A stretch of DNA of 64,000 nt from a bacterium (lineage in GTDB: Bacteria; UBA8248; JACPRG01; G963555815): NCBI GenBank assembly GCA_965249615.1, contig CBDFMI010000006.1, positions 444,132-508,131 of the forward strand, in the 5' to 3' direction. The notes under the pieces are model-generated. The model had not been told where the DNA came from. It saw only the letters and a list, made by a program, of their open reading frames with translations, and made no database searches. A program made the position numbers and the translations under genes. Shown one piece after another: positions 7,674 to 23,464 of this stretch (position 1 is the stretch's first letter; the number at the start of each line of letters is the position of its first letter).

Positions 7674-9794
7674 GTGGACGGTTTACAGTCAGATACTGGG
7701 AGCCGCTGGTCTCTTCTGTGGCGGGATTGTTTGGGGTGGCTATCGGTCTCAGCAGGTCTGGGTGTATTTGAATCGATCCTTCTGGCCTTCCAAAGACCTG
7801 AGATCAATCCCTTCGCAGTGATCGATCTTTTGGATCTCCTGAGCTCCGCCATCGTTTTAAATTCCTTGATGATTCTCCCAGTCTCAGCGGGCCATTTCCT
7901 CCTGTGTTTTCGCCTTTTGGGAGATCGCGACCGTCGGGCGCAGGGTCGAAACACGTTTTTATTCCACCTCGTTGTGTTCCTCGCGTTGGTGTTCACCATT
8001 TTTATTGGCCGAAGACTCATCTTCACGATCCCTGCAGCCATCGTGATCGCCACGGCCCTTTGGTTCGGACTGAAATATACACCCAGGCGGCTGGCCCGTA
8101 TGTTCGGGCTGGGTGTCACCGTTTTCCTGCTGGCCTTTCTTTCCTACGAATTTGCACGGCCATTTTATCCCCTAAAAAATCTCCGCGAGGTCCGGAACGA
8201 AGACAGCGCACTTCCAAATGTGCTCCTGGTGCTTGTGGATACGTTGCGGGCGGATCGGCTCTCCACATACGGCTATTCCAGGGAGACGTCCCCGTTCATT
8301 TCAAAGCTCGCGGGAGAGGGGGCGAAATTTACGAATTTCTATGCGAACGCGAGTTGGACTCCGCCGGCGACGGCAACGATTTTGACCGGCGTATTTCCCT
8401 CAATCCATGGAATAAACGGAACGTCGTTCCAAAAGAAGGCTCCGGTTAAGACGCTTTGTGAGGTTCTGCGCGGACACGGATACAACACGGCTGCGTTTGT
8501 CGCGAACCCATGGATCGGTGAGCGCAGTGGATTACTCGAAGGATGCGACTATCACAGCCCGATGTGGAACCCCTTTAGGCGAAACCACCAGAGACGTGAT
8601 GTCCCAGATCCATCCGCACCCTCTTTCCTGATCCTCGCCAGCGAGCCGATGCTGGAAAACATTTTCGTCTGGAGAAAGTTTGTTTTTTTGCCACGCATTT
8701 TCGTTTGGAATAGATTTGTTTCTTTGTCCGATAGGGTTGTAACCAGCCTTTTCATAATTGACAGGAAGAAGAGCCACCTCCTCCGCGGGGCATTTCGCCT
8801 AATTCAGGAGGTTGATGGAGATGGGAATGATAACCGAGAGGAGATAGAAAATCGCATTCCTCGTGCGGATGAGTTTACACATGGAGTCTTGAACTACGTC
8901 GATTATGTGGCATCGGTGGAAAACCATGATGGCCAAAGGACGAAATTCTTTATCTATCTGCACTATGTAGAACCGCATAGCCCGTATCAGTCACCTGGGC
9001 GCTATGGTCGCCTGTTTGATCCCCACTATCCGGATGAGCGTGTGACTGAGTATCCGGATCCGTCTGAAAATGGGACCACGCCGGAATTGCCGGATGCGCA
9101 GCTGCACAACCTTCAAGCACAATACGACGGAGAGACCCGTTACTTTGATGACAACTTCCAGTTCCTTTTCTCGAATCTAGAGGAAAGGGGGTTCGTGGAT
9201 AACACGTTGATTGTCTTTGTTTCTGACCATGGAGAGGAATTCTACGAGCATCGGGGATTTGGGCATGGGGGAACAGTCTTTGAGGAAGTGCTCAGAGTGC
9301 CTCCCATTTTATGGTACCCCGGCAGCTTGCCCGGCGGACTTGAGGTGGAGGAGCCGGGATCCCAGGTGGATCTAATGCCAACGATTATGGAGGTCCTCGG
9401 TCTTCCGGGGCCCGGGGATTTCCAGGGAAGAAGCTTGTTGCCGCTCATATATGGGGAGGAGAGCGGGGCGGCCATCTATGGAGAAAGCTCACGCGAGCCC
9501 CCTGGCCGCGAGCTTAGTTCTCATCGGTTTTTAGTTCATGGCCGATATAAATTTATCAACCAGGAAAAACCTGAGACAGAGCATGAAAAATTTCTTTTTG
9601 ACCTTCAGTTGGATCCGAACGAGCAAGAAAACATCTACGGCTCTGAAAAAAAGATAGCGGAAGAAATGGAGTTGCTACTGGAAAAATTCGTCACATTGGT
9701 CGAGAATGACCCCCGGTACTCTGAAAACCCAGAGGCCATCGGAGTTGACCCGGAACTGGAGGAGCGTCTGAAGGCTCTCGGATACGTTGAATGA
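7674..9794 (+). CDS. Membrane-anchored sulfatase-family (alkaline phosphatase superfamily; LtaS/MdoB/EptA-like) transferase/hydrolase, paralog 1
   Basis: N-terminal ~5 TM helices, then LVLVDTLRADRLSTYGYSRETSPFISKLAGEGAKFTNFYANASWTPPATATILTGVFP (PF00884-like metal-binding/nucleophile region) and DHGEEFYEHRGFGHG. Ends ...ERLKALGYVE. Confidence 0.75.
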   Translation: MDGLQSDTGSRWSLLWRDCLGWLSVSAGLGVFESILLAFQRPEINPFAVIDLLDLLSSAIVLNSLMILPVSAGHFLLCFRLLGDRDRRAQGRNTFLFHLVVFLALVFTIFIGRRLIFTIPAAIVIATALWFGLKYTPRRLARMFGLGVTVFLLAFLSYEFARPFYPLKNLREVRNEDSALPNVLLVLVDTLRADRLSTYGYSRETSPFISKLAGEGAKFTNFYANASWTPPATATILTGVFPSIHGINGTSFQKKAPVKTLCEVLRGHGYNTAAFVANPWIGERSGLLEGCDYHSPMWNPFRRNHQRRDVPDPSAPSFLILASEPMLENIFVWRKFVFLPRIFVWNRFVSLSDRVVTSLFIIDRKKSHLLRGAFRLIQEVDGDGNDNREEIENRIPRADEFTHGVLNYVDYVASVENHDGQRTKFFIYLHYVEPHSPYQSPGRYGRLFDPHYPDERVTEYPDPSENGTTPELPDAQLHNLQAQYDGETRYFDDNFQFLFSNLEERGFVDNTLIVFVSDHGEEFYEHRGFGHGGTVFEEVLRVPPILWYPGSLPGGLEVEEPGSQVDLMPTIMEVLGLPGPGDFQGRSLLPLIYGEESGAAIYGESSREPPGRELSSHRFLVHGRYKFINQEKPETEHEKFLFDLQLDPNEQENIYGSEKKIAEEMELLLEKFVTLVENDPRYSENPEAIGVDPELEERLKALGYVE

Positions 9795-9831
9795 AGGTTA
9801 AAGGGCTCGACTCGGACTTGGTGCACACAGC

Positions 9832-12039
9832 ATGAACCGCTGGTCCTTGCTTCGGCGAGATTTTTTGGGATGGCTGGCGGTTTCGGCAGGTCTGGGCGTA
9901 TTTGAATCGGTCTTGCTGGCCTTCCAAAGACCTAAGATCAACCCCTTCGCGGCCATCGATCTGGTCGCTCTTTCGATTTCTGCCGTCCTTTTCAACTCCC
10001 TGATGGTTCTACCCGTTTCACTCGGTCATTTTTTCTTGTATTGGCGGTTTTCTGGAGGCCACGACCATCAGGCGCAGGGCCGAAACGTCTTTTTATTTCA
10101 CCTCGTCGTGTTCCTCGCGGTTGCGTTCATCATTTTTATTGGCCGAAGGCTCATCCTTACGGTTCCTGCAACTATTCTGATGTCCGCGGGCCTTTGGTTC
10201 GGCCTTAGATATCTTTCGACAAGGATTGTTCGGGCATTTTCAGTAGGTGCCGGTATTTTCCTCTTGGCACTTTTTTCGTATGAGTCCCTCCGCTTGCCGC
10301 TCTATATCACAGACCCCGATTATGAACTATGGAAGTCGGAAGTTACGTTATGGGAGGAGGAAGACCCGCGATGTGAGACGCACCTGCGCTTCTCTACTCT
10401 CAACGGCGACCTGGGGTCCCTCGATTCCAGGAACTGTTCCAATTACTACCTGGAGAAGTTCAGGCAGGTAGAAGCGGAGCACCAATCACTGCCGAACGTT
10501 ATTCTGGTTCTTGTCGATACGCTTCGCCCCGATCACCTGTCCACATACGGCTATCATCGAGAGACATCGCCTTTTATTTCGAAGCTGGCGGCGGAGGGGC
10601 TAAAATTTACCAATTTCTATGCGAACGGTGCGTGGACCCCGCCGACGACTTCAACGCTTCTAACCGGCGTTTTTCCCGCAATCCATGGGATATATGAGCC
10701 TGGCGGGCAAAAGAGGGAGACAGTCAAAGTCATTTCTGAGACTCTCCGTGACTACGGCTATAACACAGCCGCCTTTATCGCGAATCCACTGATTACGAAA
10801 AGCACTGGGTTGCTGGACGGATATGATTATTTCTACCGAAAACCCAGGCCGCCGGTGTCGCGGCCGTCGTTGAGGCTCGCGAGCTTCCCCAGTCCGGAGA
10901 ACCTCCTCATATGGGTGAAGTTTCTGTCTCTGTCAGATAAGGTGGTCCAGGCGTTTCGGGGTTTTGATGGGAAGAAAAACGATCTTTTAGTTCAGATATT
11001 TCCCTTCAGCCGTGAATTAGAGCCAGAAAGACAGGAAAGGATACGGGAGGAATTCCGTTTCCCCCCCGCGGAAGTCGACATGGATAAAGAACTCGACTTC
11101 CCCCGGGCGAATGAAATGGCGAACGCGGTGCTGAATTACGTGGATTACGCCTTGGCAGGTCCTGACTTCGACGTTGTGCAAACGAAATTCTTCCTCTTTC
11201 TCCACGACATGGGTCCCCACGATCCTTATAAGTTGCCCACGCCATATGACGTCCTCTTCGACCCTGGGCGCCAGGATAGGCCGGAGGCCGAAGGGGCAGT
11301 CCGGTTTTTGGATGAGTCGCCGCCTGCGTCAGTTCGGGAGAGATTGGCCCATGATTTGCCGCTGTATGACGGAGCAATCCGTTTCTTCGATGATAATTTT
11401 CAGGTGCTCTTTTCGGAACTCAAGGAACGGGGGCTTTTGGACAATACCCTAGTGATCTTGCTGGCAGATCATGGGGAAGAATTCTATGAGCACGGTGAAA
11501 TTGGACATGGGGAGAAGGTCTTTGAGGAAATTGTCAGGATCCCCCTTGTCTTGTGGTATCCAGGGGAATTGCCCTAAGGGGTCGAGGTGAAGGAGTTCGG
11601 GTCGCAGGTGGATATAATACCCACGATCGTGGATGTTCTGGATCTGCCAGTACCAGAGGGGTTGCAGGGAAAGAGCCTCTTGCCCGCGATATCCGGGAGG
11701 GGGCTAGAGAGGGTTGTGTACGGAGAAAACTTGCGTGGTTCGCAGGATTTATCGTCGGGAGATATGTTGCGATTTTTGATCCATGGCCGATATAAACTCA
11801 TCACCATGGGGACACCTAAGACAGTGCGGGAAAAATTGCTCTTTGACCTCCAGTCGGACCCGCATGAGAAAAACAACATCTGCGGGTCTGAGAAAAAGAT
11901 AGCGGAAGAAATGGAATCGCTGCTAGAGGATTTCATCGCATTGGTGAAGAAGGACCCTAGGTATTCTGAAGACCTAGAGGCCGTTGAAGTGGACCCGGAA
12001 CTGCAGAAGCGTCTAAAGGCTCTCGGATACATTGAATGA
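9832..12039 (+). pseudogene. Tandem paralog 2 of the membrane-anchored sulfatase-family protein, interrupted by an in-frame TAA (11575-11577). N-part 9832-11577 (581 aa); C-part restarts at GTG 11587, 6 nt after a GGGG RBS-like run, and runs to 12039.
   Basis: Collinear with paralog 1 over its entire length. Paralog 1 reads WYPGSLPGGLEVEEPGSQVD where paralog 2 reads WYPGELP*GVEVKEFGSQVD; same frame before and after the stop. Ends ...KRLKALGYIE. Confidence 0.6.
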
Positions 12040-12129
12040 GGGTTAAAAAGTTCGCGTCGATCCTGGTGAAAAAGCAGGCTCACCTTTGGCCCGCGATCGG
12101 GTTTTTAGTTTGAGAGGACGTGGGTAAGA

Positions 12130-13806
12130 ATGTCCATCTCCAAGGTCGCCCTCCTGGGTCTTGACGGTGCCACCTTCTACCTCCTTCGCCCCTGGATGGA
12201 GGATGGAACGCTCCCCAATCTTGCGAACCTCCAAAAACGGGGAGCCTCTGGGGTCCTTGCCTCCACCGTTCCACCGGTGACACCGACGGCCTGGTCCACG
12301 TGCATCACGGGGGTAAACCCGGGAAAGCACGGGATATTCGATTTTCGAGATTCTCCCCTCCGTCATCCCGACCGCCCCCTTCTGAGTCTATCCTCTATCC
12401 GCGCCCCCCGGCTCTGGCAGCTCCTGAATGGGGTCGGGAAAAAGACCATCATCCTCAATGTCCCCATGACTTATCCACCTGAGGCGGTGGACGGGTGCAT
12501 GGTCTCGGGGATGATGACACCGGGGCCGGAGGCGAACTACACTTATCCCCTGGAACTCAAGGCGGAGATCCGTCGGGAGATCGGAGAGTACCTGCCGGAT
12601 ATCGACCTGCCCAAGTACGACGCCGAGCGTTATGAGGATGCCCTGGCATACCTGGACTTGATACGGAAAAGTTTTTCCCAGCGGGAAAAACTTTTCTTCC
12701 ACCTCATGGAGAACCGGCCCTGGGATTTCTTCATGGGGGTTTTCATCTTGCCCGACCGGCTCCAACACGTCTTCTGGAAATATCTGGACCCTGAGGCCGG
12801 GCTCTACGGGACCGAGATCGCCCAGCGGCTCCGAGGCTCGGTCATTGACTGCTATCGTCTGATGGATGATTTTATCGGGCGCCTCGTGGAGCGGCTTTCC
12901 TCTGATACCCTCCTTCTTATCATGTCGGACCACGGTTTTGGACCCACCCAGGCCTGGATCAACGTGAGCACCTGGCTGGAGCAGCAGGGTCTCCTCAAGA
13001 TGAGGGGCCAGATGGCCCTGCAGCGACGCCTCTTGTACCATGCTGTGGGGCTGAACGAGGTGGGCTGGCTAAAACGCCTTATCCCGCAGTCCCTTCAGGC
13101 CTTCGCCCGAAAACGGGTGCGTCAGACCAAGTCCGCCTTTCGGACCGACGTTCAGGTCACCCTGGACTGGGATCGGACCCAGGCCTTTTTTCCCAGCATT
13201 CCGGCTCAAGGGATCTACATCAATGTGGAGCGGGACGGAGCGGGGATCGTCCCCCCGGGGGAGGCCTACGAGGCCCTGCGCGCTCGGCTTCGCGATTCGT
13301 TGCTGGCCCTGAAGGACCCGGCGACAGGGGAACGGATCGTGGACGCGGTGCAGTATCGAGAAGAGGTCTACCACGGGCCCGAAACCCCCTACGCCCCGGA
13401 CCTGTTCTTCGTCGCCCGAAATTACAGCTACCTGGGCCGGCCGATGTTTGGGGGCCGAGAGGTCATCCGGTCGCGCGTCCAGGTGCCAAACGGCTTTCAC
13501 CGCCCCGACGGGATCTTCATGGCTCATGGACCTCACGTGGCCTCGGGCCGGGCGGTCACTGGCTCCCACATCGCTGACATCACCCCCACCATCCTCTATA
13601 GTCTCGGCCTCCCCGTCCCAAAAGAGATGGACGGAAAGCCTTTGTCGGAGATCTTTGAGGCGGACTTTCGGCCCGAGAAGAAGGGCCAAGAGGTGAGCGC
13701 TACTGAAAGTCCACAGCCGCCTGAGAGGACTCCCTCTGAGGCTTATCGTCCCGAGGAGGCCTCCGCCATCGAGAAACGCCTTCGGGCCCTGGGGTATGAG
13801 GACTGA
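12130..13806 (+). CDS. Alkaline phosphatase family protein (type I phosphodiesterase/nucleotide pyrophosphatase-like, PF01663-like), AP-1
   Basis: LGLDGATFYLLRPW...STVPPVTPTAWSTCITGVNPGKHGIFDF aligns to the NPP KTFPNHYS.VTG nucleophile-Thr motif; MSDHGFG metal-binding motif. Ends ...EKRLRALGYED. Confidence 0.75.
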   Translation: MSISKVALLGLDGATFYLLRPWMEDGTLPNLANLQKRGASGVLASTVPPVTPTAWSTCITGVNPGKHGIFDFRDSPLRHPDRPLLSLSSIRAPRLWQLLNGVGKKTIILNVPMTYPPEAVDGCMVSGMMTPGPEANYTYPLELKAEIRREIGEYLPDIDLPKYDAERYEDALAYLDLIRKSFSQREKLFFHLMENRPWDFFMGVFILPDRLQHVFWKYLDPEAGLYGTEIAQRLRGSVIDCYRLMDDFIGRLVERLSSDTLLLIMSDHGFGPTQAWINVSTWLEQQGLLKMRGQMALQRRLLYHAVGLNEVGWLKRLIPQSLQAFARKRVRQTKSAFRTDVQVTLDWDRTQAFFPSIPAQGIYINVERDGAGIVPPGEAYEALRARLRDSLLALKDPATGERIVDAVQYREEVYHGPETPYAPDLFFVARNYSYLGRPMFGGREVIRSRVQVPNGFHRPDGIFMAHGPHVASGRAVTGSHIADITPTILYSLGLPVPKEMDGKPLSEIFEADFRPEKKGQEVSATESPQPPERTPSEAYRPEEASAIEKRLRALGYED

Positions 13807-13807
13807 G

Positions 13808-14878
13808 ATGGCAGGTCTGATGACGAAAGTCTCCCATGCCCTTCGAGGGGGTTGGGGGACCCTTTTGAAGGTCGGGGTGAGTGGACTGCTCATCCTTGTC
13901 CTCATTTGGCAGGTGGATTTCGATCGGCTTTGGGTCGTCGTCCGGGATATGTCCCCCGCCTGGCTCCTCCTGGCGCTCTTCTTCAAGTCGGGAGGGGTAT
14001 TCTCGAGCATCCTTCGGTGGCGAGTGCTTCTGAAGGGACAGGACCTCGCCGTCCCTTTAAAAGTCCTCACCTCCTCCTTTCTCGAAGGCCGTTTCTTCGG
14101 CACCTTCACGCCGAGCACCATCGGCCTTGACGCCTATCGAACGTATGACCTGGCCAAGTATTCCGGCCGAACAGCGGCCTCGGTTTCAGTCACATTGGTG
14201 GATAAGGTGATCGGGCTGTTCTCTCTCTCCTTTCTCGTGGCGGTCACCTCATTTGCCGGCGCCCGGTTTGTTGGAGGGCAAGGGGTCTTCTCCCTTCTCC
14301 TCGTCTTCTGTGTCCCCCTCTCCCTGTCCCTGATCTTTCTCCTTTTTCCGGGGCTCCTTGGCCGACTCGTCGACATCAGGAGGTGGAAATCAGGAGGATG
14401 GGCGGAGAAGATGGGCCGTTTCGTCGAAACCGTCACCGTCTATCGCCACCACCGGATCCTCATTGTTCAGGCGGTCGGGCTCGCTATCTTGGTCCACCTT
14501 GGGACCACGCTCATGTATTACGGGACGGCCCTTTCGGTGCAAGCCCCGGTCAGCCCCTTGGACATCCTCTTCGTTGGGCCCCTGATGATCACGGCGACGG
14601 TCATCCCTCTTTCTGTGGCCGGGATCGGGGTCCGTGAGGGGACCTTTGTCTTCTTCCTCACTCGGGTGGGGATCGAGGCGGAGGCCGCCATCCTTCTCGC
14701 CTTTCTCGGGTTCCTCGTAGGCGAGGTCATCAGCCTTTTCGGAGGCTTCATCTTCCTGTTGCGCTCCCACGCGTATCATCGGCGTGAGGGGGGGGTCGCC
14801 GGGGCCGCGGAAAGCGGCCTGGGCAAAGCCGGGGGTGAGGAAGAGGCCGTGGGGACAAAGAAAGAGATTGGCTCTTGA
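13808..14878 (+). CDS. Flippase-like / lysylphosphatidylglycerol-synthase-TM-region family membrane protein (UPF0104). Alternative start ATG 13796, which would overlap the AP-1 stop.
   Basis: About 8 TM helices; N-terminal KVGVSGLLILVLIWQVDFDRLW...LALFFKSGGVFSSILRWRVLL pattern is characteristic of the TIGR00374/PF03706 family, often paired with glycosyltransferases. Confidence 0.5.
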   Translation: MAGLMTKVSHALRGGWGTLLKVGVSGLLILVLIWQVDFDRLWVVVRDMSPAWLLLALFFKSGGVFSSILRWRVLLKGQDLAVPLKVLTSSFLEGRFFGTFTPSTIGLDAYRTYDLAKYSGRTAASVSVTLVDKVIGLFSLSFLVAVTSFAGARFVGGQGVFSLLLVFCVPLSLSLIFLLFPGLLGRLVDIRRWKSGGWAEKMGRFVETVTVYRHHRILIVQAVGLAILVHLGTTLMYYGTALSVQAPVSPLDILFVGPLMITATVIPLSVAGIGVREGTFVFFLTRVGIEAEAAILLAFLGFLVGEVISLFGGFIFLLRSHAYHRREGGVAGAAESGLGKAGGEEEAVGTKKEIGS

Positions 14879-16551
14879 GACGCCTCCTCATCATCGGCGT
14901 CGACGCCGGCACCCTGGACCTCATCGAGCCGTGGGCCCGAGCGGGTGATCTCCCCCATCTGGCCCGTCTCCTCAGGGAGGGGGCCTATGGGCGAGTCCAG
15001 TCGACCCTCCCCCCCTCCACCTATCCCGCCTGGACCTCCTTCATGACCGGTCAGAACCCCGGGCGGCACGGTCTCGTGGACTTCACCTTGAGGGAGGGAG
15101 GGCGCTATGCCGTCAGATTCGCCAGCTCCCGAGACCGGCAAAGTGCTAGTTTGTGGGGGATCCTCAGTGAGGCCGGCCGAAGAGTCGCCGTCCTCGGCAT
15201 GCCCGCCACATACCCCCCTGAAGCCGTCAACGGCTGTATGGTCAGCGGATTCGACTCCCCCCTAGCATGGCGTCTCAACGAGAGCTTTTTTCATCCTCGA
15301 GGGCTCCACCGGGAGGTCATACAGGAGGCGGGACTCTTCCCGCTCTCGGCCTGCCGGGAGGATCGGATCGGAAAGGGCTGGCACGAGCGGGCCTATCGGG
15401 AGATCCTGAAATCACTGGAGCAAGAAACTCGCGTGGCGGAGTACCTCCTGGGCCGGGAAGCGTGGGATTGCTTCTGCGTCGTCTTCGGCCAGACAGATAC
15501 GGTGTGCCATCATTTCTGGAAATTCTTCGACCCATCCTCTCCCCGATATGACTCAGAGGGGGCGAGGCGCTTTGGAGACGCCATCCGTCAAGTCTATCGG
15601 CGTGTGGATTCAGCCATCGGTTCCCTGCTGCAAAAGGCGCCCGATGACGTCACGGTCCTCATCGTCTCGGACCACGGAGCGGGGGGGGCAGGAAACCAGA
15701 TTATTCATTTAAACGCTTGGCTGGCCGGGGAGGGCCATCTGACCTTTCGAAAGGGGGGGGTGGGCTACCGTGCCCTTTCAGCCCTGAAGACGCTGGGCCT
15801 CGGCTATCTCCCGAGGAGGGTTCAAGAACAGGTCTTTCGTGCGGGCGGGGGCAGGCTGGCAAATGGGCTAGAATCCCGCTTGCGTTTCGGCCAGATCGAA
15901 TGGGCGAAGACCCGGGTCTATTCCGAGGAGCTGGGTTATTTCCCCTCTCTTTGGATCAACCTTCGGGGGAGGGAGCCTCAGGGGACGGTGGAGCCCGGCA
16001 GGGAATATGAGGATCTGAGGGACGAGATCATCAGCCGCTTAGAGGTTCTCAGACACCCCGTCACGGGGAGGCGCCTCGTTGAGCGGGCCGTTCGGCGAGA
16101 GGAGGTTTATTGGGGCCCCTTTGTGGACCGGGTTCCTGACATTCTCCTGGAGCTCGCCCTCGACGAGGGCTATAGCTACTCCTGCCTTCGAAGTCCAGCC
16201 CGCTCCCAGGGCCCCTTCGTTCGCTCTCTCCAGAGAGCGGAGGGGGCCAGGGGCCAGGGGATGAACGGCTCACACCGACCAGAGGGGTTTTTCGTTCTCT
16301 CGGGTGAGGGGGTGCGCCCGGGGAAGTGCCGGTTCACCCCCCATCTCATGGACTTTGCCCCGACGCTTCTCGCCCTTTTGGGGATCACCCCTTCGGTGGG
16401 GATGGACGGTCGGGTCTTGGAAGAAGTCCTGAGCGTCCCTGAGCCTCATCCCGTCCCCGTCGCCGTGGCAGGGGAAGAGACGCCTTCGGCGGCCCAGGGG
16501 TGGGAAGGCACGGCCTTCCGGCGGCTTCGGGACCTTGGATACCTGGAATGA
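14875..16551 (+). CDS. Alkaline phosphatase family protein (type I phosphodiesterase/nucleotide pyrophosphatase-like), AP-2; TTG start overlapping the upstream stop
   Basis: IGVDAGTLDLIEPW...STLPPSTYPAWTSFMTGQNPGRHG...VSDHGAGGAG; paralogous to AP-1. Ends ...FRRLRDLGYLE. Confidence 0.72.
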   Translation: MRRLLIIGVDAGTLDLIEPWARAGDLPHLARLLREGAYGRVQSTLPPSTYPAWTSFMTGQNPGRHGLVDFTLREGGRYAVRFASSRDRQSASLWGILSEAGRRVAVLGMPATYPPEAVNGCMVSGFDSPLAWRLNESFFHPRGLHREVIQEAGLFPLSACREDRIGKGWHERAYREILKSLEQETRVAEYLLGREAWDCFCVVFGQTDTVCHHFWKFFDPSSPRYDSEGARRFGDAIRQVYRRVDSAIGSLLQKAPDDVTVLIVSDHGAGGAGNQIIHLNAWLAGEGHLTFRKGGVGYRALSALKTLGLGYLPRRVQEQVFRAGGGRLANGLESRLRFGQIEWAKTRVYSEELGYFPSLWINLRGREPQGTVEPGREYEDLRDEIISRLEVLRHPVTGRRLVERAVRREEVYWGPFVDRVPDILLELALDEGYSYSCLRSPARSQGPFVRSLQRAEGARGQGMNGSHRPEGFFVLSGEGVRPGKCRFTPHLMDFAPTLLALLGITPSVGMDGRVLEEVLSVPEPHPVPVAVAGEETPSAAQGWEGTAFRRLRDLGYLE

Positions 16552-17768
16552 GTGGAGAGAAAGGATCTCGTCGGAAGGTGGCCATGGTGGCCCCCTGTCC
16601 CTTCCCAAGCGTTCAGGGCTCCCAGATCCTGATCCAGGATCTGGCCGGGGGCCTCGAGAGGAGGGGACACGAGGTCCACGTGGTCACTTACCCCTTCGGG
16701 GGCTCCCGTCCGACCGCTTCCTTGCGGATCCACCGGGCTGCCTGTCCCCTTCGTTATGCCGTGGACCACCCGGGCCCTCATCTCTATAAACCTTTTCTGG
16801 ACCTCTTCGTCTTGAGAGAGCTCCTGCGGGTCATCCGCGGGGAGGGGATTGAGCTCCTCCACGCCCACAGCTATGAGGGGTTGCTCATCTCCCTGCTGGC
16901 CGGAAGGTGGACGGGCATTCCCGTCCTCTATCACAGCCACACCCTCCTCGAGGAGGAGCTCCCCACCTATTTTCGGGCCTCGTGGAAGCGCGCCCTGGCG
17001 CATTGGGTGGGCCGACTGCTGGACCGACAGCTTCCGCGTCGGTCAGACCATTGCATTGCCCTTTGTCAGAGAACCCTTGGGGCCTTTCGGGCCTTGGGGG
17101 TGGCGGCGGATCGCTCTTCCTGCATTCGTCCTCTGATCTTTTCCCCCGCCGATAAAACTCCTTCCAGGGTGGATGTAGAGCGCCATCCCTTCATCCTCTA
17201 TACGGGAAACCTCCACCCGTATCAGGATCTCAATCTCCTGATGGAGGGGTTCGCCGAGGTGGCCTCGAGGCTCTCAGAGGTCCGCCTGGTTATCGCCACC
17301 CATTCTGACCCTTCCCATTACGCCGCCCTGGCAAGGGCCCTGGGGCTGTCGGAGCGGGTCTCCTTTCGCGTGAAACCTCCCTTGGATGAAGAGTGGGGTT
17401 TGATGCGGAGGGCCGACCTCCTCGTCTGTCCGCGCCTTCGGTGCTCCGGCTACCCCATCAAGCTTTTGAACTACCTGGCGGCTGGAAGGCCCATCCTCGT
17501 CAGTGAGGGCTCGGCCGAGGGGATTCGCCATGGCGAGAACGGCTACGTTGTCTCTCGGCCTGAACCGAAAACCCTGGCGGAGGGGGCTATTCAAATCCTT
17601 CAGTCCCCCGCCTTGGCAAAACGGTTGGGCGAAGGGGCGGCCCGGACCTACCGGGAGGAGGTGGCGGAAGAGCGCTCCTTGTCGGCCATCGAGGCCATCT
17701 ACACGCAGTGTCTGGGGGAGGAGGGGAACGCGGCCCTCCTCGCCCACCCGAGGGAAATGGCCTCATGA
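16548..17768 (+). CDS. Glycosyltransferase family 4 (group 1)
   Basis: ATGA start/stop overlap with AP-2. N-terminal VAMVAPCPFPSVQGSQILIQDLAGGLERRGHEVHVVT (GT4 N-domain) and C-terminal ...CPRLRCSGYPIKLLNYLAAGRPILVSEGSAEGIRHGENGYVV (E-x7-E-like donor-binding region). Confidence 0.75.
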   Translation: MSGEKGSRRKVAMVAPCPFPSVQGSQILIQDLAGGLERRGHEVHVVTYPFGGSRPTASLRIHRAACPLRYAVDHPGPHLYKPFLDLFVLRELLRVIRGEGIELLHAHSYEGLLISLLAGRWTGIPVLYHSHTLLEEELPTYFRASWKRALAHWVGRLLDRQLPRRSDHCIALCQRTLGAFRALGVAADRSSCIRPLIFSPADKTPSRVDVERHPFILYTGNLHPYQDLNLLMEGFAEVASRLSEVRLVIATHSDPSHYAALARALGLSERVSFRVKPPLDEEWGLMRRADLLVCPRLRCSGYPIKLLNYLAAGRPILVSEGSAEGIRHGENGYVVSRPEPKTLAEGAIQILQSPALAKRLGEGAARTYREEVAEERSLSAIEAIYTQCLGEEGNAALLAHPREMAS

Positions 17769-19168
17769 CCAAGGTCTTGATCCTGGGCCTCGATTGCGCA
17801 GACCCTCGCCTGGTCTTTGACCGCTGGCGACAAGAACTTCCGAACCTCAGACAGCTCATGGAGGCCGGCGTCTGGGGCCCTCTTCAGAGCACCATCCCCC
17901 CCATCACGGTCCCAGCCTGGGCCTGCATGATGACGGGGCGGGACCCTGGAGAGCTAGGGATCTATGGGTTCCGAAACCGGACCTCCTATCAGTACGGGGC
18001 CCTGGGGATCACCAGCTCTCTCTCGGTCCAAGAGGAGACCCTGTGGGACATCCTGGGCCGCACCGGCCGGGAGGTGGTGGTCGTCGGGGTCCCTCCTTCA
18101 TATCCTGTGAAGCCCGTCCGGGGCAGCCTCATCTCCTGCTTTCTCACCCCGAACGCCGAGGTCCCTTTCACGCATCCCCCTGAGCTCAAGGAGGAGGTTC
18201 AGCGTCTTGCCGGCGGGTACCTGTTTGACGTGGAGGGATTCCGGACCGACGACAAGCCCCGGCTCCTCCAACAGATCCACGAGATGACAGAAAAACGCTT
18301 TAGGGTCCTGAAACACCTACTCACCCGAAAGCCGTGGGACTTTTTTATGTCGATGGAGATCGGGGTGGACCGCATGCATCACGGCTTTTGGAAATTTCAC
18401 GATGAGGGCCACATCAAGCACCCCCCGCAAAACCCCTATCAGCACGTCATTCTGGACTATTACCGCTATGTGGACAAGGAGATCGGTGAGCTGGTGGAGT
18501 CCGTCGACGAGGACACGGTCATCATCGTCCTCTCTGATCACGGGGTGAAGAGGATGGAGGGGGGGCTGTGCGTCAACGAATGGCTCATGAAGCAGAAATA
18601 TCTGAGCCTCTCCGCCTACCCCAAGGAGCTCACCTCCCTCAGCAAGCTCGATGTGAACTGGGACCGGACCATGGTCTGGGGAGAAGGGGGGTACTATGGC
18701 CGGATCTATCTCAACGTAAAGGGCCGGGAACCCCAGGGGGTCATCGCCCCAAATGACGTGGAGAAGATCCGGGCAGAGCTGAAACAGGGCATGGAAGAGC
18801 TTTCCGACGAATCAGGGCGCCCCCTCGGGACCCGCGTATTCTATCCCGAGGAGGTCTATCAGGAGGTCCGGAGGATCCCGCCCGATCTCATCGTCTATTT
18901 TGGAGACCTGGACTGGCGCTCTGTCGGGACCGTGGGCCATGGCTCGATCCACACCCGAGAGAATGACACGGGCCCTGACGACGCCAACCACGACACCCAC
19001 GGGATATTCATCATGGCGAAGAAGGCGGACCTCAAAGGGGGCGGGACCGGTCTGGGAACCCGCCTCGACGGTCTCAGCCTCTACGACGTGACCCCCACCG
19101 TCCTGGACCTCCTTGGCCTTCCCATCCCACCCTCGATGCACGGGCGAGTGATTTCTCCTAGAGCCTGA
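17765..19168 (+). CDS. Alkaline phosphatase family protein (type I phosphodiesterase/nucleotide pyrophosphatase-like), AP-3
   Basis: ATGA overlap with the GT4 stop. MTKVLILGLDCADP...STIPPITVPAWACMMTGRDPGELG...LSDHGV. Lacks the C-terminal LGY tag (ends ...HGRVISPRA). Confidence 0.75.
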   Translation: MTKVLILGLDCADPRLVFDRWRQELPNLRQLMEAGVWGPLQSTIPPITVPAWACMMTGRDPGELGIYGFRNRTSYQYGALGITSSLSVQEETLWDILGRTGREVVVVGVPPSYPVKPVRGSLISCFLTPNAEVPFTHPPELKEEVQRLAGGYLFDVEGFRTDDKPRLLQQIHEMTEKRFRVLKHLLTRKPWDFFMSMEIGVDRMHHGFWKFHDEGHIKHPPQNPYQHVILDYYRYVDKEIGELVESVDEDTVIIVLSDHGVKRMEGGLCVNEWLMKQKYLSLSAYPKELTSLSKLDVNWDRTMVWGEGGYYGRIYLNVKGREPQGVIAPNDVEKIRAELKQGMEELSDESGRPLGTRVFYPEEVYQEVRRIPPDLIVYFGDLDWRSVGTVGHGSIHTRENDTGPDDANHDTHGIFIMAKKADLKGGGTGLGTRLDGLSLYDVTPTVLDLLGLPIPPSMHGRVISPRA

Positions 19169-19202
19169 TCGGTCCGCCTGTCTGGCTGAAAGAACCGCCA
19201 GA

Positions 19203-19240
19203 AAAAGCTTGACGGGGAAAAATGGGTGTATATACTCGTT
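19203..19240 (+). promoter_or_regulatory. Sigma70-like promoter, copy A: AAAAGCTTGACGGGGAAAAATGGGTGTATATACTCGTT (TTGACG, 16-17 nt spacer, TATACT)
   Basis: Near-identical (about 34/39 nt) to the element at 35888-35930; sits about 65 nt upstream of the CDS at 19306. Confidence 0.55.
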
Positions 19241-19305
19241 GTATCGGAAGAGACTGAAGGAGACGGAATTTCAGTCCGAGAGCGGGGCCACGCAATGGAG
19301 CAGAA

Positions 19306-20034
19306 ATGGCCCAGGAGGGGGTGAACATGGGCGAGCTTTCTTCCACGGCGAAGCGTGCTGTCTCAGCCTACGGCGGGGCCGATCGCTGGCGAAACGCACG
19401 GGCCATCGAGGCTGTGGTCTCGGCCAACGGCTTGGGCTTCCGCTTGAAGTGGCGGCGTCCTGCCCCAAATGCGGACGTCCGGGTGGAGATAGCGGAACCG
19501 GTCGTCAGGATGGATCTCAAAGATAGCGAGGGGCACATCGGCGTGATGGACCGGGGAGACGTGAGGATTGAGACGTCTTCTGGTAAAGTCGTGGCCTCAC
19601 GGCCGAATCCAGAACACCTGTTTCCCTACGGGCGAAGGGCTTTTTGGTGGGATCGGCTCGACCAGATCTACTTCTCAGGGTACGCCTTGTGGAACTACAT
19701 GACGCTTCCGGCCCTGTTGCTCAGGGACGACATCCAATGGGAGGAGCTCAGAGAGGGGAGCCTTCAGGCGCGTTTTCCCAAACATCTTCCAACACATTGC
19801 GAGGTGCAGCAGTTTCATTTCGAGCCGGCCACAGGGCTCCTGCGCCAGCTCGACTACACGGCGGAGGCCTTCGGAAACTGGGCCAAGGCCGCGAACGTGG
19901 TTTTGGAGCACGGCGAATCGGAGGGGATTCCTTATCCTTCACTGCGTCGGGTTACCCCGCGCCGAGGGGACGGCAGCCCGCGCAAGGGGCCGCTCCTCGT
20001 CGGGATCGAATTCCATCGATTCCGGCTCGTCTAG
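19306..20034 (+). CDS. Hypothetical protein (242 aa), no recognised family
   Basis: ORF with coding-like composition, downstream of a strong promoter-like element; convergent with cysC. Confidence 0.4.
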   Translation: MAQEGVNMGELSSTAKRAVSAYGGADRWRNARAIEAVVSANGLGFRLKWRRPAPNADVRVEIAEPVVRMDLKDSEGHIGVMDRGDVRIETSSGKVVASRPNPEHLFPYGRRAFWWDRLDQIYFSGYALWNYMTLPALLLRDDIQWEELREGSLQARFPKHLPTHCEVQQFHFEPATGLLRQLDYTAEAFGNWAKAANVVLEHGESEGIPYPSLRRVTPRRGDGSPRKGPLLVGIEFHRFRLV

Positions 20035-20042
20035 TCCCCAAT

Positions 20043-20675
20043 CTAGTCGATATATCCCAAGCCCTTCAGTTTGGCCTGGATGGTCTGCTTCTCTTCCTCG
20101 GAATAGACGTAATCGGCGGGCTCGATGTAACCGAATTCTTCCAGCCGAGAGAGAATATGCGCGACAGATTCCTTAACCGACTCTTTGTCCGTCTCGACGG
20201 TTATCTCGGGGTTGAGGGGCTCTTCATAGGGGTCTGAGACCCCCGTAAAATTCTTAATCTCACCCTTAAAAGCTTTCGCGTACATCCCTTTCACGTCCCG
20301 TTCTGCGCAGACCTCAACAGGGCATTTGACGTAGAGCTCCACGAAGCGCCCCACCTCGGCCCTTACGGCGTCTCGGATGGCCCGGTAGGGGGCGATGACC
20401 GCCGCCATGTTGGGAACCCCGTTTCGGGTCAAGAGGTGACAGAGGTATCCCAGGCGAATGATGTGCTTATCGCGGTCCTCTTTGGAGAAGCCGAGGTCGG
20501 CGCTGAGATTGCGGCGCACTTCGTCGCCGTCGAAGACCTCGACGTTCGGAAAACCGCGCTCGTGAAGTTTCTCTCCGAGAAGAACGGCAATCGTGCTTTT
20601 CCCTGAGCAGGGAAGGCCTGTGAACCAGACCGTGAACCCTCTGGGTTTATCTTTGATCACTTTCTCTCTCCTCAA
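20043..20675 (-). CDS. cysC: Adenylylsulfate (APS) kinase with a C-terminal extension carrying the LGY tag
   Basis: RGFTVWFTGLPCSGKSTIA (P-loop), FDGDEVRRNL and the LTRNGV core of APS kinase. The C-terminus reads ...LSRLEEFGYIEPADYVYSEEEKQTIQAKLKGLGYID, i.e. two copies of an L..(F/L)GYI(E/D) element. TTG start overlaps the sat stop by 2 nt. Confidence 0.85.
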   Translation of the reverse strand: MRREKVIKDKPRGFTVWFTGLPCSGKSTIAVLLGEKLHERGFPNVEVFDGDEVRRNLSADLGFSKEDRDKHIIRLGYLCHLLTRNGVPNMAAVIAPYRAIRDAVRAEVGRFVELYVKCPVEVCAERDVKGMYAKAFKGEIKNFTGVSDPYEEPLNPEITVETDKESVKESVAHILSRLEEFGYIEPADYVYSEEEKQTIQAKLKGLGYID

Positions 20676-21850
20676 GAGCCGCCGTCAGAACCCTGTCCTG
20701 CCCGCTCGGCGTAAGCCTGGTGCAAGACCCGGGCGACTTCAGGCCGCATCACCTCCGGGGGTGGAAGCTCCCCGCGGTCTAAAATTTCCCTCACACGAGT
20801 TCCGCTCAGGAAGACGCGCTCTTTCTCCCCGTGGGGGCAGGTCTTGGCCGTTATCATGGCCTCACACCCACGGCAGTAGAAGGCGTGGTCGAAGAAGAGA
20901 GGGGTGATCCCGATCTCCGAGGCCTCGAACTCGTGGAAGATATGGTGGGCGTCATAGGAGCCGTAGTAAGACCCGACGCCGGCGTGGTCCCGGCCCACGA
21001 TGAAATGGGTACAGCCGTAGTTCTTTCGCACGATAGCGTGGAAGATGGCCTCCTTCGGCCCGGCGTAGCGCATGGCCGCCGGAAACACGGAGAGGACCGT
21101 CCGGTTCTTGGGAAAATAGCTCTCCAGGATCACCCTGTAGGAGGCCATCCGGAGGTCCGCCGCCAGGTCGCCCTCCTTGGTGGCCCCGACCAGGGGATGA
21201 AGTAGGAGGCCGTCCACACATTCTAGGGCGCACTTCTGAATGTACTCGTGGGCGCGATGAATGGGGTTTCGGGTCTGGAAGGCCACGACCGTCTTCCACC
21301 CCTTGAGCTGAAAGAGAAGGCGGGTCTCCTTGGGTTCCAGATGGAAGTTGGACCACTCGGTGGCGGCCCCTCTTCGAAGGAGTTTAATAGGCCCCCCGAT
21401 GAGGACAGGGCCTCGCTCGAAGACCTGGCGAACCCCGGGGTGGTCCGAATCTTTTGTCCCGAAGACCTGCTCCACCTCCCTCTCCTTGTCCGGCTTCCAC
21501 TGAGAGGTGACCCGAAGAAGCCCGGTCGTTTCCTTCCCGACCGTGAGGGTAATCTCGTCACCTATGGAAAGGGTCTGGGCCGTCTTCTCATCCACGCCGA
21601 GGACGATGGGAAGCGTCCAGGGAAGGCCCAAGGCGAGGCGCTGGTCTTCCACCACAGCCTGGTAGTCCTCCTCCTCCATGAATCCCCTTAGGGGGCTGTA
21701 GGCCCCCGTCGCGATGAGTTCGAGATCGGAATGCTCCTGGGCCGACAGGGCGATTTTCGGCAGCCCTTGGGCTTTTTTGTCCAAGGCGGGCCGATCCTCC
21801 TCCCGGACCATCCGGTCGACGAGGACCCCGCCGTGCGGTTTGATAGGCAC
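20672..21850 (-). CDS. sat: Sulfate adenylyltransferase (homo-oligomeric ATP sulfurylase)
   Basis: VVAFQTRNPIHRAHEYIQK contains both the QTRN and HRAH motifs; 392 aa; translationally coupled to cysC. Confidence 0.85.
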   Translation of the reverse strand: MPIKPHGGVLVDRMVREEDRPALDKKAQGLPKIALSAQEHSDLELIATGAYSPLRGFMEEEDYQAVVEDQRLALGLPWTLPIVLGVDEKTAQTLSIGDEITLTVGKETTGLLRVTSQWKPDKEREVEQVFGTKDSDHPGVRQVFERGPVLIGGPIKLLRRGAATEWSNFHLEPKETRLLFQLKGWKTVVAFQTRNPIHRAHEYIQKCALECVDGLLLHPLVGATKEGDLAADLRMASYRVILESYFPKNRTVLSVFPAAMRYAGPKEAIFHAIVRKNYGCTHFIVGRDHAGVGSYYGSYDAHHIFHEFEASEIGITPLFFDHAFYCRGCEAMITAKTCPHGEKERVFLSGTRVREILDRGELPPPEVMRPEVARVLHQAYAERAGQGSDGGS

Positions 21851-22045: not shown

Positions 22046-23464
22046 TTATCTCCCGGTGGCGGGCTCTAAATTCACCTCGATATAGCGCGCAATCTGGGGG
22101 TGGACTCGGGAGATCTCGTGGTAGATCTGCTGAGCCGCCCTCCGGTAGGTGAAGTGCCCCTTGGGGTCGGAGCGGAGCTTCACCACGTGCATCACCTCCC
22201 GGAGGTTCATCTGCCAGAGGAAGCGGCGGTGATGAGCGTTTAGGACAAAGTAGGGGGCCTCGTTCGGAAAATCCGCCAAAAACTTCTCAAAACACTTCTC
22301 GGCCTTGTCCACCCCTGCCAAATATTCTTGTTTCAACCCGGCGTCCTCGACGAGCTCGGGGATCGAGAACCCGTGGCGGATGGTCGGGGCCTGAGTGCTC
22401 TGGCTGCACATCCGGTGGCGCTTGAGGTCGAGGAAGGCCCCCTGGTCCACGAGACACTCGAAGGTGTAGGTCAGGTACTCCATCTCCCGGATGGGGATGT
22501 CAAAACGCTCTATTCGGCTCAGGGCCTCTTCAATGACTTTTTCCCGAGCTTCTTGGGGCATCTGTGCCACCCTCTCCCGGATGGCCTCGTAGGGGAGATG
22601 ACTGTATTTGAACAAGATGGCCGCCGCCAGGGCGACGTCGGGGTTTTCGGGGACCTGAACCAGCCGGGCATAATTTTCCTGAGGGCCGGACGCCTTTGAG
22701 ACCGGGGAGCCGTTGGTCATGGTAGAGGCGACGAGCTTCCTGAGGGCCGCCTCCGTGTCTCTCAGATAGGCGTTGTCGTCTGCATACTTGACGAGGGTTG
22801 GGGCGGCCGCCTGGCTGACCTCCTTCAGGGTGGTCCCGATCTGTTGGATTTCGGACAGGTCGTGGGAGAGCATCTTGGTGATGGCGTGCTCCAGGTGTCG
22901 GGCGTTGACGGTCATCCCCACATTGGCCAGGGCGGCGGTGGGGAGGAGAAAGCGCGAGCGGTCGAGGGCGTGGGCCCTCACGCGGACGTTGTATCCCCGA
23001 TCCGTCTCGTTCTCCCTCCTTTGGAGGACCCCCTTCTCTTTGATGAAGGCGTCCAGCTTCGTCTGGACGGCGTGGTAGTTCTCGAACATCCACTGCATGG
23101 CCTCGCGGTATTTTTGGCCGAGGGGTGAGGCGTCCACCTCGTCTGGGACATAATAGTCGTCCGGCTTGAAAACCTGATAGCGGGAGGATTTTTCGGTGTA
23201 GGAGGCGAGACGGTTCGCCTCGATGACTTCCGTTGCGTAGCGCGAAACATTCTCGATGGCGATGGAGAGGACGGCGTGCTCGGCCACCGAGGCGTGCCCA
23301 TAGCCGACGACCCATTTCTCATGGAACTCGGCCGAGGCGCTTTCGGTCAGCTCCTTGGCGATCTCGTCAAAGGCCTTTGGGGAGCGACTCGTCTTCGCGA
23401 AGGCGACGGCGACCACCTCGGGCGGGAGGTCCCGGAGGAGATAGATGCGGCGTTTTTTGTCCAT
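22046..23464 (-). CDS. thyX: FAD-dependent thymidylate synthase ThyX, long tandem-domain form
   Basis: The C-terminal half carries the canonical LKRHRMCSQS (RHR..S) motif. The N-terminal half is Thy1-like (GHASVAEHAVLSIAIENVSRYATEVIEANRLASYTEKSSRYQV) with a degenerate RHR; 472 aa is about twice a standard ThyX. Confidence 0.6.
   Translation of the reverse strand: MDKKRRIYLLRDLPPEVVAVAFAKTSRSPKAFDEIAKELTESASAEFHEKWVVGYGHASVAEHAVLSIAIENVSRYATEVIEANRLASYTEKSSRYQVFKPDDYYVPDEVDASPLGQKYREAMQWMFENYHAVQTKLDAFIKEKGVLQRRENETDRGYNVRVRAHALDRSRFLLPTAALANVGMTVNARHLEHAITKMLSHDLSEIQQIGTTLKEVSQAAAPTLVKYADDNAYLRDTEAALRKLVASTMTNGSPVSKASGPQENYARLVQVPENPDVALAAAILFKYSHLPYEAIRERVAQMPQEAREKVIEEALSRIERFDIPIREMEYLTYTFECLVDQGAFLDLKRHRMCSQSTQAPTIRHGFSIPELVEDAGLKQEYLAGVDKAEKCFEKFLADFPNEAPYFVLNAHHRRFLWQMNLREVMHVVKLRSDPKGHFTYRRAAQQIYHEISRVHPQIARYIEVNLEPATGR

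Follow-up and report, generated by a model that had tools for sequence, protein, structure and literature searches.

A shared C-terminal RLxxLGY tail on alkaline-phosphatase-superfamily enzymes, APS kinase and their gene neighbours

Five similar tails in one locus

The stretch of bacterial DNA considered here (contig CBDFMI010000006.1, positions 444,132 to 508,131; 64 kb in full, and called the window below) contains a locus in which five genes end in nearly the same way. Two encode sulfatase-like paralogs, two encode soluble enzymes of the PF01663 family (AP-1 and AP-2; AP, alkaline phosphatase), and the fifth, on the opposite strand, encodes CysC, the kinase of adenosine 5'-phosphosulfate (APS) that produces 3'-phosphoadenosine 5'-phosphosulfate (PAPS). 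Each protein terminates in the strict motif L[KR]xLGY[VILE][DE], called the tag (Table 1). A six-frame regular-expression scan of the window, read together with a listing of its open reading frames (ORFs), confirmed the five tails of the initial annotation: the strict motif occurs five times, every copy lies immediately 5' of a stop codon, and all are in this locus. Shuffled windows gave no match in 600 (300 mononucleotide and 300 triplet shuffles), and no further window ORF has a tail ending in ΦGY (Φ, hydrophobic) plus 0-2 residues. The shared tail is real and far from chance. As had also been noted, AP-3, the GT4 glycosyltransferase and the flippase-like protein do not carry it; nor does Sat.

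The five carriers had been described as unrelated proteins, which is correct for CysC, the sole truly unrelated fold among them. The other four are two paralog pairs of one superfamily: PF00884 and PF01663 cross-match, and both families belong to the alkaline-phosphatase superfamily. AP-1, a PF01663 enzyme of the COG3379 type, is soluble and lacks both a signal peptide and any transmembrane (TM) segment. Sulfatase-like paralog 1 matches PF00884 and SGSH_C and has about five N-terminal TM segments; five such segments followed by a catalytic domain resemble the architecture of LtaS/EptA-type transferases. Both sulfatase-like paralogs (7674-9794 and 9832-11577) have SWTPP where true sulfatases have C/S-x-P-x-R. 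In place of this formylglycine sulfatase motif the window has SWTPPATATILTG and the homolog consensus is SWTxPS without the Arg, and the NCBIfam arylsulfatase score (167 against a cut-off of 481) is far too low. Paralog 2 is split by an in-frame TAA at 11575-11577 (…WYPGELP-stop-GVEVKEFGSQVD…), so that its tag sits on a 150-residue C-terminal ORF unless the stop is an error; either the gene is a pseudogene or the TAA is a sequencing or assembly error. A database protein of 424 residues (P0241) matches the N-terminal part of paralog 2 and has a different ending.

CysC scores above the curated cut-offs as an APS kinase (PF01583, 187.6 bits over residues 12-160; TIGR00455, 211.7 bits). The NCBIfam models reach residue 185, beyond which lies an extension of 25 residues; because the kinase models end at residue 160-185, the tag falls outside them. 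The APS kinases of known structure, 5cb6 (Synechocystis), 2gks (Aquifex) and 8a8h (Methanothermococcus), end in …L..L.Y[IL]E at the equivalent of CysC residue 184-185. Since the solved structures and the Pfam/NCBIfam models both stop there, the 25 residues that follow are an add-on, and the stretch RLEEFGYIE, previously taken for a second, internal copy of the tag, is the normal end of the kinase fold.

Table 1. Coordinates of the tagged genes, their tags and the neighbouring genes
Feature	Positions	Strand	Remarks
Sulfatase-like paralog 1	7674-9794	+	end ...ELEERLKALGYVE; strict motif 9768-9791
Tag of paralog 1 (DPELEERLKALGYVE)	9747-9791	+	
Sulfatase-like paralog 2	9832-12039	+	end ...ELQKRLKALGYIE, tag QKRLKALGYIE; motif 12013-12036; in-frame TAA 11575-11577
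AP-1	12130-13806	+	end ...AIEKRLRALGYED; strict motif 13780-13803
Full 20-residue tag module of AP-1 (YRPEEASAIEKRLRALGYED)	13744-13803	+	
Flippase-like membrane protein	13796-14878	+	PF03706 LPG_synthase_TM / TIGR00374; untagged
AP-2	14875-16551	+	soluble PF01663 enzyme; end ...FRRLRDLGYLE; strict motif 16525-16548
GT4 glycosyltransferase	16500-17768	+	untagged; start codon uncertain
AP-3	17708-19168	+	PF01663 enzyme, 486 residues, untagged; AP3-like family
ORF of 242 residues between AP-3 and CysC	19306-20034	+	no Pfam/NCBIfam match
CysC	20043-20675	-	end ...IQAKLKGLGYID; strict motif 20046-20069
Full 20-residue tag module of CysC (YSEEEKQTIQAKLKGLGYID)	20046-20105	-	
'Internal copy' in CysC, LSRLEEFGYIE (RLEEFGYIE)	20121-20144	-	ordinary C-terminal helix of the APS-kinase fold
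ATP sulfurylase Sat	20672-21850	-	PUA_2 + ATP-sulfurylase; untagged; part of the conserved Sat-AP3-CysC set

The module and its carriers

The strict motif is the end of a longer module. Logos of AP-1 homologs and of CysC homologs agree at Y/F(-12), S/T(-11), E(-8), I/V(-4), R(-1), L0, L3, G4, Y5 and Φ6, and the extended module reads [YF]-[ST]-x-[ED]-E-x-x-x-[IV]-x-x-R-L-x-x-L-G-Y-Φ over ~20 residues. A final D/E is optional: AP-type tails usually have it, and CysC-type tails mostly do not. The Tyr is replaced by Phe in 0 of 336 tails (117/117, 115/115 and 104/104 keep it). Under established helix-capping rules this sequence would form a single helix, with a hydrophobic staple and an S/T-x-x-E N-cap box at its start, an I/L/L face, and a Gly C-cap followed by Tyr-Φ. 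In the AlphaFold2 (AF2) model of AP-1, residues 541-553 form an isolated helix (predicted local distance difference test score, pLDDT, 46-65), undocked on a low-confidence linker; in that of CysC the tail helix comprises residues 193-206 (pLDDT 86-93). The linker to the host protein is variable and mostly acidic. The last ~20 residues of AP-1 tails have a mean charge of -2.8 (98% below zero) and haloarchaeal tails are also net acidic, whereas the cores of CysC-type tails are net basic (mean +2.65). Scans of the carriers found no Pfam or NCBIfam model that covers the tail, and PDB searches found no solved structure that includes it (AP-1 has distant nucleotide pyrophosphatase/phosphodiesterase (NPP) matches only, AP-3 has none, and the matches of the small carriers described below are to the NikR N-domain only). 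A literature search for tail peptides as strings (LGYIE, LGYLE and similar) returned casein peptides only, and nothing relevant was found in the literature on COG3379, DUF2061 or AP-superfamily sulfotransferases.

The initial annotation held that the tail could not be inherited family sequence, a claim that comparison with homologs overturns. The 120 best AP-1 homologs, at 45-96% identity, belong to Tectomicrobia, Zixibacteria, Chloroflexota, Sumerlaeota and further phyla, and 117 of them end in the tail. The closest 120 APS kinases (56-98% identity) include 99 with an extension of ~25 residues ending in …RLKxLGY[IL], and 16 further ones in which W or R replaces the Leu before GY; the tagged kinases come from Nitrospinota, Poribacteria, Syntrophobacterales and others, and canonical APS kinases are without the extension. 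A full HMMER scan with sulfatase-like paralog 1 gave 150 cluster representatives, in 104 of which L..ΦGY lies at most 4 residues from the end and in most of the others 5-15 residues from it, which brings the motif to about 140 of the 150 (104 plus ~35 further in, by a tally from the listing). The tag is thus a clade-inherited feature, which has also been transferred to partner proteins.

Nor is the tag bound to a free C-terminus, as had been supposed. Besides the many sulfatase-like proteins that continue for 5-15 residues after it, tandem-sulfatase proteins carry the motif after each catalytic domain, and in fusions of sulfatase or PF01663 domains with TPR regions (L025, L119, L124:4969-7248, L171 and P0259; L numbers denote loci, P numbers database proteins) RLxxLGY is internal, directly before the TPR region. 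These internal copies mean that the free carboxylate is not strictly needed. The position before the TPR region may be a clue to a TPR receptor, or no more than a result of domain accretion. At their N-termini the sulfatase-like proteins bear 0, 1 or 4-6 hydrophobic segments, and in several cases a lipoprotein signal; the range of the motif therefore extends beyond the cytoplasm.

The tag is also not specific to this operon, and is spread over many bacterial and archaeal phyla. A genome collection (one genome per species) was scanned with a degenerate DNA pattern for Φ..RL..LGYΦ[DE]-stop and yielded at least 120 loci. Among the matches listed, nearly all are genuine tails after an acidic linker: 67 are soluble AP-1/AP-2-like PF01663 proteins, 17 are sulfatase-like, ~22 are small proteins (63-82 residues), and one (an ImmA/IrrE peptidase) is probably a chance match; the hosts include Haloarchaea, Thermoplasmatota, Planctomycetota, Verrucomicrobiota, Chloroflexota, Myxococcota, Acidobacteriota, Actinomycetota and a bacterium of the candidate phyla radiation (CPR). 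A metagenome scan with a variant that omits the final acid (EExΦxxRLxxLGYΦ-stop) found at least 121 tails; the matches listed comprise 36 APS kinases, ~40-60 small proteins resembling ribbon-helix-helix (RHH) proteins and 18 AP or sulfatase proteins, together with a P-loop sulfotransferase (Sulfotransfer_1/3, PF00685/PF13469) and short proteins that resemble the C-terminus of CysC. Carriers span bacteria and archaea, including Thermoproteota.

The small carriers are RHH proteins, with a β-strand, a helix, a G[FY]xS turn and a second helix in the alignment. Their profile matches the RHH domain of NikR in the PDB (E=5e-4) and Pfam RHH_1 only below threshold, and the source records call them 'CopG family'. 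A search with the profile retrieved 2956 members at E ≤ 0.01, including proteins of Archaeoglobus profundus, Pyrococcus sp. ST04, Thermoprotei and Bathyarchaeota; one RHH protein, P0391, has two tags in tandem. In two archaeal loci a pair of RHH-tag paralogs stands around an AP3-like gene (L246, 6909-7133 and 8001-8216; L248, 7541-7771 and 8001-8237), and one member of each pair has a shortened tag ending in …RRL[RK]ALGY[IL]P. A further carrier came from the neighbourhood look-up: a DUF2061 membrane protein (L121:9717-9968) ends in …QRLRDLGYID, and the copy at L248:4432-4761 is untagged. Small DUF2061 membrane proteins recur in sulfate-activation loci (L121, L248).

Taken together, these data bear out the earlier view that the tail is a genuine shared short module, present on P-loop APS kinases, RHH proteins, DUF2061 proteins, a sulfotransferase and AP-superfamily enzymes. 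The module is widespread and unannotated, on thousands of bacterial and archaeal proteins.

Neighbouring genes and fusions

Gene neighbourhoods were taken from nine loci obtained by protein look-up, whose called genes were scanned with Pfam, and from contigs found in the scans, which were compared only with a fixed set of reference proteins. The tagged CysC homologs on long contigs adjoin PF01663 genes in 4 of 4 cases and Sat as well in 3 of the 4. A locus of Syntrophobacterales (L121) has the order RHH-tag, AP3-like, DUF2061-tag, CysC-tag, AP, and L122 has Sat, AP3-like, CysC-tag. Locus L123 is syntenic with the window (ThyX, Sat, CysC-tag, AP3, GT4, AP2-tag, flippase-like, AP1-tag), and L124 has Sat, AP3, CysC-tag, three more AP paralogs, RHH-tag and a conserved membrane protein of ~270 residues. 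The untagged CysC of L125 has neither a PF01663 nor a Sat neighbour. On metagenome contigs of at least 3 kb, among the matches listed, an AP3-like gene is present in 14 of 16 CysC-tag loci, and AP, Sat or CysC genes are present in 27 of 42 small-protein loci. An ordinary family feature would be expected in all homologs whatever their context. This describes the AP and sulfatase clades; it does not describe APS kinase, because the canonical kinases lack the extension and the tagged ones stand beside AP3-like genes.

Within these loci the tag is frequent on CysC (38/52), rare on AP3-like proteins (3/46) and absent from Sat (0/25). In archaea (Archaeoglobus-like, Thermoprotei), RHH-tag genes likewise adjoin an AP3-like gene of ~455-466 residues, and APS kinase, CysD/CysN or DUF2061 genes are also present, varying by locus. 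Two fusions join the same components covalently: APS_kinase+PF01663+tag (709 residues; L243, on a metagenome contig of the Ga0307468 type) and APS_kinase+RHH+tag (254 residues; L147). The set of Sat, an AP3-like PF01663 protein (~460 residues, usually untagged) and CysC recurs at window positions 17708-21850 and in L121-L124, L136, L170, L171, L189 and L249. The AP3-like enzyme is without a solved relative or functional annotation; candidate reactions are those of a phosphatase of PAPS or of 3'-phosphoadenosine 5'-phosphate (PAP), or of a sulfotransferase.

Elsewhere the tag keeps different company. In Planctomycetota and Acidobacteriota, RHH-tag genes lie between untagged membrane-anchored AP paralogs and the membrane protein of ~270 residues. 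This polytopic protein is directly downstream of RHH-tag in L003, L025, L028, L038, L048, L060, L096, L118, L119 and L124 (16482-17306), and it has no Pfam or NCBIfam match. In haloarchaea (L055, L081, L097, L026, L044) tagged AP-like and sulfatase-like genes lie in apparent surface-glycan biosynthesis clusters, with flippase, epimerase, oxidoreductase, aminotransferase and deacetylase-like neighbours as judged from the translated sequences. Agl7, described in PMC3892788 as needed for sulfation of dolichol phosphate (DolP)-hexose in Haloferax, might be a member of the tagged haloarchaeal AP-like family.

Around the tagged genes of the window, the 242-residue ORF at 19306-20034 is absent from the syntenic locus L123 and is a candidate gene only. 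The ThyX-like protein at 22046-23464 (- strand, 472 residues) contains two Thy1 (PF02511) stretches, as in a duplicated or fused flavin-dependent thymidylate synthase, and corresponds to two separate genes in L123. The remaining window genes are housekeeping genes (complex I, DnaN, MreB, TolB, pyruvate kinase and others). A Pfam scan of most window ORFs of at least 180 residues revealed no gene of shell, TPR, PDZ or sortase type.

A possible docking function and its alternatives

From the module, its distribution, its neighbourhood linkage and the fusions we infer, tentatively, both binding and a binding partner. On the reading we favour, the tag is a docking helix for protein-protein contacts, by which partners are tethered to AP-type catalytic domains, with the untagged AP3-like enzyme, of which AP-3 is the window's representative and a candidate tag receptor, as the probable receptor in trans. 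It would be a mobile, autonomously capped α-helix of ~20 residues in which a staple/N-cap box ([YF]-[ST]-x-x-E) leads into an amphipathic core ([IV]xxRLxxL), closed by a Gly-Tyr-Φ C-cap. Ancestrally it would belong, as an accessory, to a large clade of AP-superfamily enzymes of the Thr type (COG3379/PF01663 and the 'sulfatase-like' PF00884 proteins), and would have been copied onto proteins that work with them, namely APS kinase, a PAPS-type sulfotransferase, DUF2061 membrane proteins and small RHH regulators. The helix would then bind AP-type catalytic domains in trans, either between subunits or between different proteins. In the window, this could give a non-covalent assembly in which the supply of PAPS by Sat and CysC is coupled to AP-3 and to the AP-like enzymes encoded in a cluster for glycan or glycolipid modification (GT4, flippase-like protein); in other genomes, an RHH regulator tethered to the AP3-like enzyme might provide a feedback route.

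Binding to AP domains is favoured because the carriers are AP enzymes or their neighbours, because the AP3-like gene is the constant neighbour of non-AP carriers, and because tandem sulfatases have one motif per domain, which fits one tag per AP domain. A helix that is pre-organised, capped at both ends and borne on a flexible acidic linker would be built like a docking peptide, and the undocked tail helix in the AF2 model of AP-1 is as expected of a peptide predicted to act in trans. The invariant R-L-x-x-L-G-Y, with its Tyr never Phe, points to a specific binding pocket over generic amphipathicity. The proposal of the initial annotation, a docking peptide that recruits the PAPS-producing kinase to AP-superfamily enzymes, thus remains the best reading, because carriers are linked to PAPS synthesis.

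Several observations weigh against a docking helix of this kind, or at least narrow it. The receptor is deduced from co-occurrence only. The CysC tail, which AF2 places confidently, may pack in cis on its own kinase or on the tag-like last helix of that kinase, and the CysC-AP3 fusion keeps the tag although its partners are covalently linked, which is hard to explain for a pure CysC-AP3 linker. Many tagged AP-1/AP-2-like genes in haloarchaea and Planctomycetota have no Sat or CysC nearby, so a 'PAPS metabolon' is not the whole story. Finally, the two 5-TM sulfatase-like paralogs of the window probably face outward, with their tags outside the cell (a positive-inside analysis leans this way and is not conclusive); given these and the carriers with signal peptides or lipoprotein signals, one cytoplasmic complex cannot hold all carriers.

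The main rival, association of tags with one another, would explain these points about equally well. A homotypic 'sticky helix' would form small bundles that oligomerise the carriers and co-assemble tagged proteins without a dedicated receptor, which would suit the tandem tags of P0391, the two motifs of tandem sulfatases, the several tagged proteins per operon and the tag retained in the CysC-AP3 fusion. CysC fits as well, its own last helix being tag-like and its added helix confidently placed, and no universal untagged partner was found other than the AP genes. C-terminal helices commonly tetramerise RHH repressors such as Mnt; here the tag could turn RHH dimers into tetramers. We nevertheless consider this explanation unlikely: a generic oligomerisation helix would not be limited to AP-superfamily enzymes and the proteins encoded beside them, the hydrophobic face measures only ~1.5 heptads, and the AF2 model of AP-1 shows a tail without structure relative to the body. 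It is more doubtful still that the tag is a structural element in cis, a helix that packs on its own host and whose spread over folds reflects convergence on an 'L..LGY' helix cap. That the tag is a clade-wide family feature of the AP-1, sulfatase-like and CysC clades agrees with such an element, as do the native L..L.Y[IL]E end of APS kinases, the high pLDDT of the CysC tail and the similar L..L..LGY in helix 1 of peptidoglycan (PG)-binding domains (sub-threshold PF08823 matches). Yet unrelated folds share a likeness of 20 residues that includes the upstream [YF][ST]xEE box, the AP-1 tail is undocked and separated from the body by a low-confidence linker, and neither neighbourhood linkage nor fusions would be expected of convergent caps.

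Three other possibilities are improbable to an increasing degree. In the one that looks to tyrosine chemistry, the invariant Tyr would be a substrate, pseudo-substrate or carrier for AP-type enzymes, O-sulfated or phosphorylated via PAPS, or would plug the bimetal site as an autoinhibitor. The retention of Tyr in all 336 tails, an acidic context like that generally known for Tyr-sulfation sites, the clustering of carriers with Sat, CysC and a sulfotransferase, and a flexible linker that could bring the Tyr to an active site are all compatible with this, and it is established that AP-superfamily active sites bind aryl sulfate and phosphate esters. There is little chance that it is correct, since L-x-x-L-G-Y-Φ is a textbook helix C-cap whose Tyr packs back, and many carriers have no PAPS genes near them. 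Marginally less probable again is its most specific form, in which the tail Tyr, O-sulfated or esterified from PAPS, is presented to AP active sites as a swinging-arm sulfuryl carrier or as a regulatory switch shared by the enzymes and the RHH regulator; if true, it would mean a widespread prokaryotic protein-tyrosine-sulfate system across bacteria and archaea. An amphipathic helix like those of MinD and FtsA could instead bring soluble enzymes to the membrane, the site of lipid-linked substrates, and the C-terminal position on a flexible linker, the basic CysC-type cores and the membrane proteins, flippase-like gene and GT4 in the loci would be in keeping with it. We regard this as highly improbable in view of the acidic tails of AP-1-type and haloarchaeal proteins, a G-Y that is invariant across archaeal and bacterial membranes, and the occurrence of the motif at internal positions and on integral membrane and secreted proteins. 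Least probable by some way is a C-terminal signal for sorting (exosortase or sortase), for cargo loading (encapsulin or microcompartment) or for degradation (a protease degron). Its terminal position, its poorly conserved linker and its presence on several enzymes of one locus recall such signals; the motif is followed by neither a TM helix nor a basic tail, domains of the shell, sortase or exosortase kind were not found in the Pfam-scanned window ORFs or the called genes of the nine looked-up loci, some copies are internal, and DNA-binding regulators are among the carriers.

To return to the docking helix, the tag is a credible, previously undescribed interaction module that may point to a Sat-AP3-CysC-RHH system; this verdict is based on the association with AP enzymes and sulfate activation, on the fusions, and on the failure to find a database model or literature. 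If the tag does dock, thousands of bacterial and archaeal proteins would share an interaction module that had gone unannotated, and fused PAPS synthases would have a non-covalent counterpart. The tag would expose a conserved, uncharacterised gene set (Sat, AP3-like PF01663, CysC, the RHH regulator and, in places, DUF2061), and would suggest a part for cytoplasmic AP-superfamily 'phosphodiesterases' and 'sulfatases' in PAPS-fed sulfate-ester or glycan-modification chemistry. RLxxLGYΦ near a C-terminus would then be a sequence handle for finding members of the pathway, and the tag might find use in engineering as a portable tethering peptide.

Among known systems, the signals for exosortases and sortases (PEP-CTERM, LPXTG, GlyGly-CTERM) can be set aside: the tails end 0-2 residues past GYΦ with no TM segment. 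In the window ORFs scanned with Pfam and the called genes of the nine looked-up loci, no cognate processing enzyme was seen. SHOCT (PF09851) is similar in being ~20-30 residues long, usually C-terminal and present on unrelated bacterial and archaeal proteins, with a presumed role in oligomerisation. Its sequence, however, is unrelated, the tag is limited to AP-superfamily enzymes and their gene neighbours, and Pfam scans of the carriers, with an E-value ceiling of 0.01 or 1 according to the set, gave no SHOCT match. Polyketide synthase (PKS) and nonribosomal peptide synthetase (NRPS) docking domains, bacterial microcompartment (BMC) encapsulation peptides and encapsulin cargo peptides also resemble the tag, each being a short terminal helix on a poorly conserved linker that joins unrelated enzymes of one locus. 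The tag departs from them in being also internal and on secreted proteins, and no shell or scaffold gene was seen in the window ORFs or annotated loci scanned; PF04454, PF00936 and PF03319, the encapsulin and BMC families, are absent there. The MinD/FtsA targeting sequence is likewise a C-terminal amphipathic helix (~10-15 residues) of bacteria and archaea. It is net positive and belongs to peripheral cytoplasmic proteins, whereas the tag is mostly net acidic, as in AP-1, has an invariant R-L-x-x-L-G-Y, and occurs on integral membrane proteins, with polytopic and secreted carriers among its hosts. HbYX of proteasome activators also docks through a conserved Tyr near a free C-terminus. There, a hydrophobic residue, Tyr and any residue are the last three; in the tag an invariant Gly precedes the Tyr, which is at -2, -3 or further in, with D/E or up to ~15 residues after it.

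In local sequence the tag resembles the C-terminal helix native to APS kinase (…L..L.Y[IL]E) and helix 1 of PG_binding domains (…LQ..L..LGY…), which have the same L..L(G)YΦ cap pattern; this accounts for the 'internal copy' in CysC and for the sub-threshold PF08823 matches. Those helices are integral to larger folds, whereas the tag is an addition, set apart by a linker and equipped with an N-cap box of its own. For PG_binding_1/2, only PF08823 positions 4-30 are matched (15-16 bits against a cut-off of 21.1), which is short of the full three-helix domain of ~60-70 residues. The proposed function can be compared with that of the covalent PAPS synthases (the Aquifex Sat-CysC protein, 2gks; CysNC; metazoan PAPSS), in which APS kinase is physically coupled to its sulfate-activation partners, much as in the CysC-AP3 fusion. 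The coupling proposed here would differ from these in being non-covalent, through a peptide tag, and directed toward an AP-superfamily enzyme.

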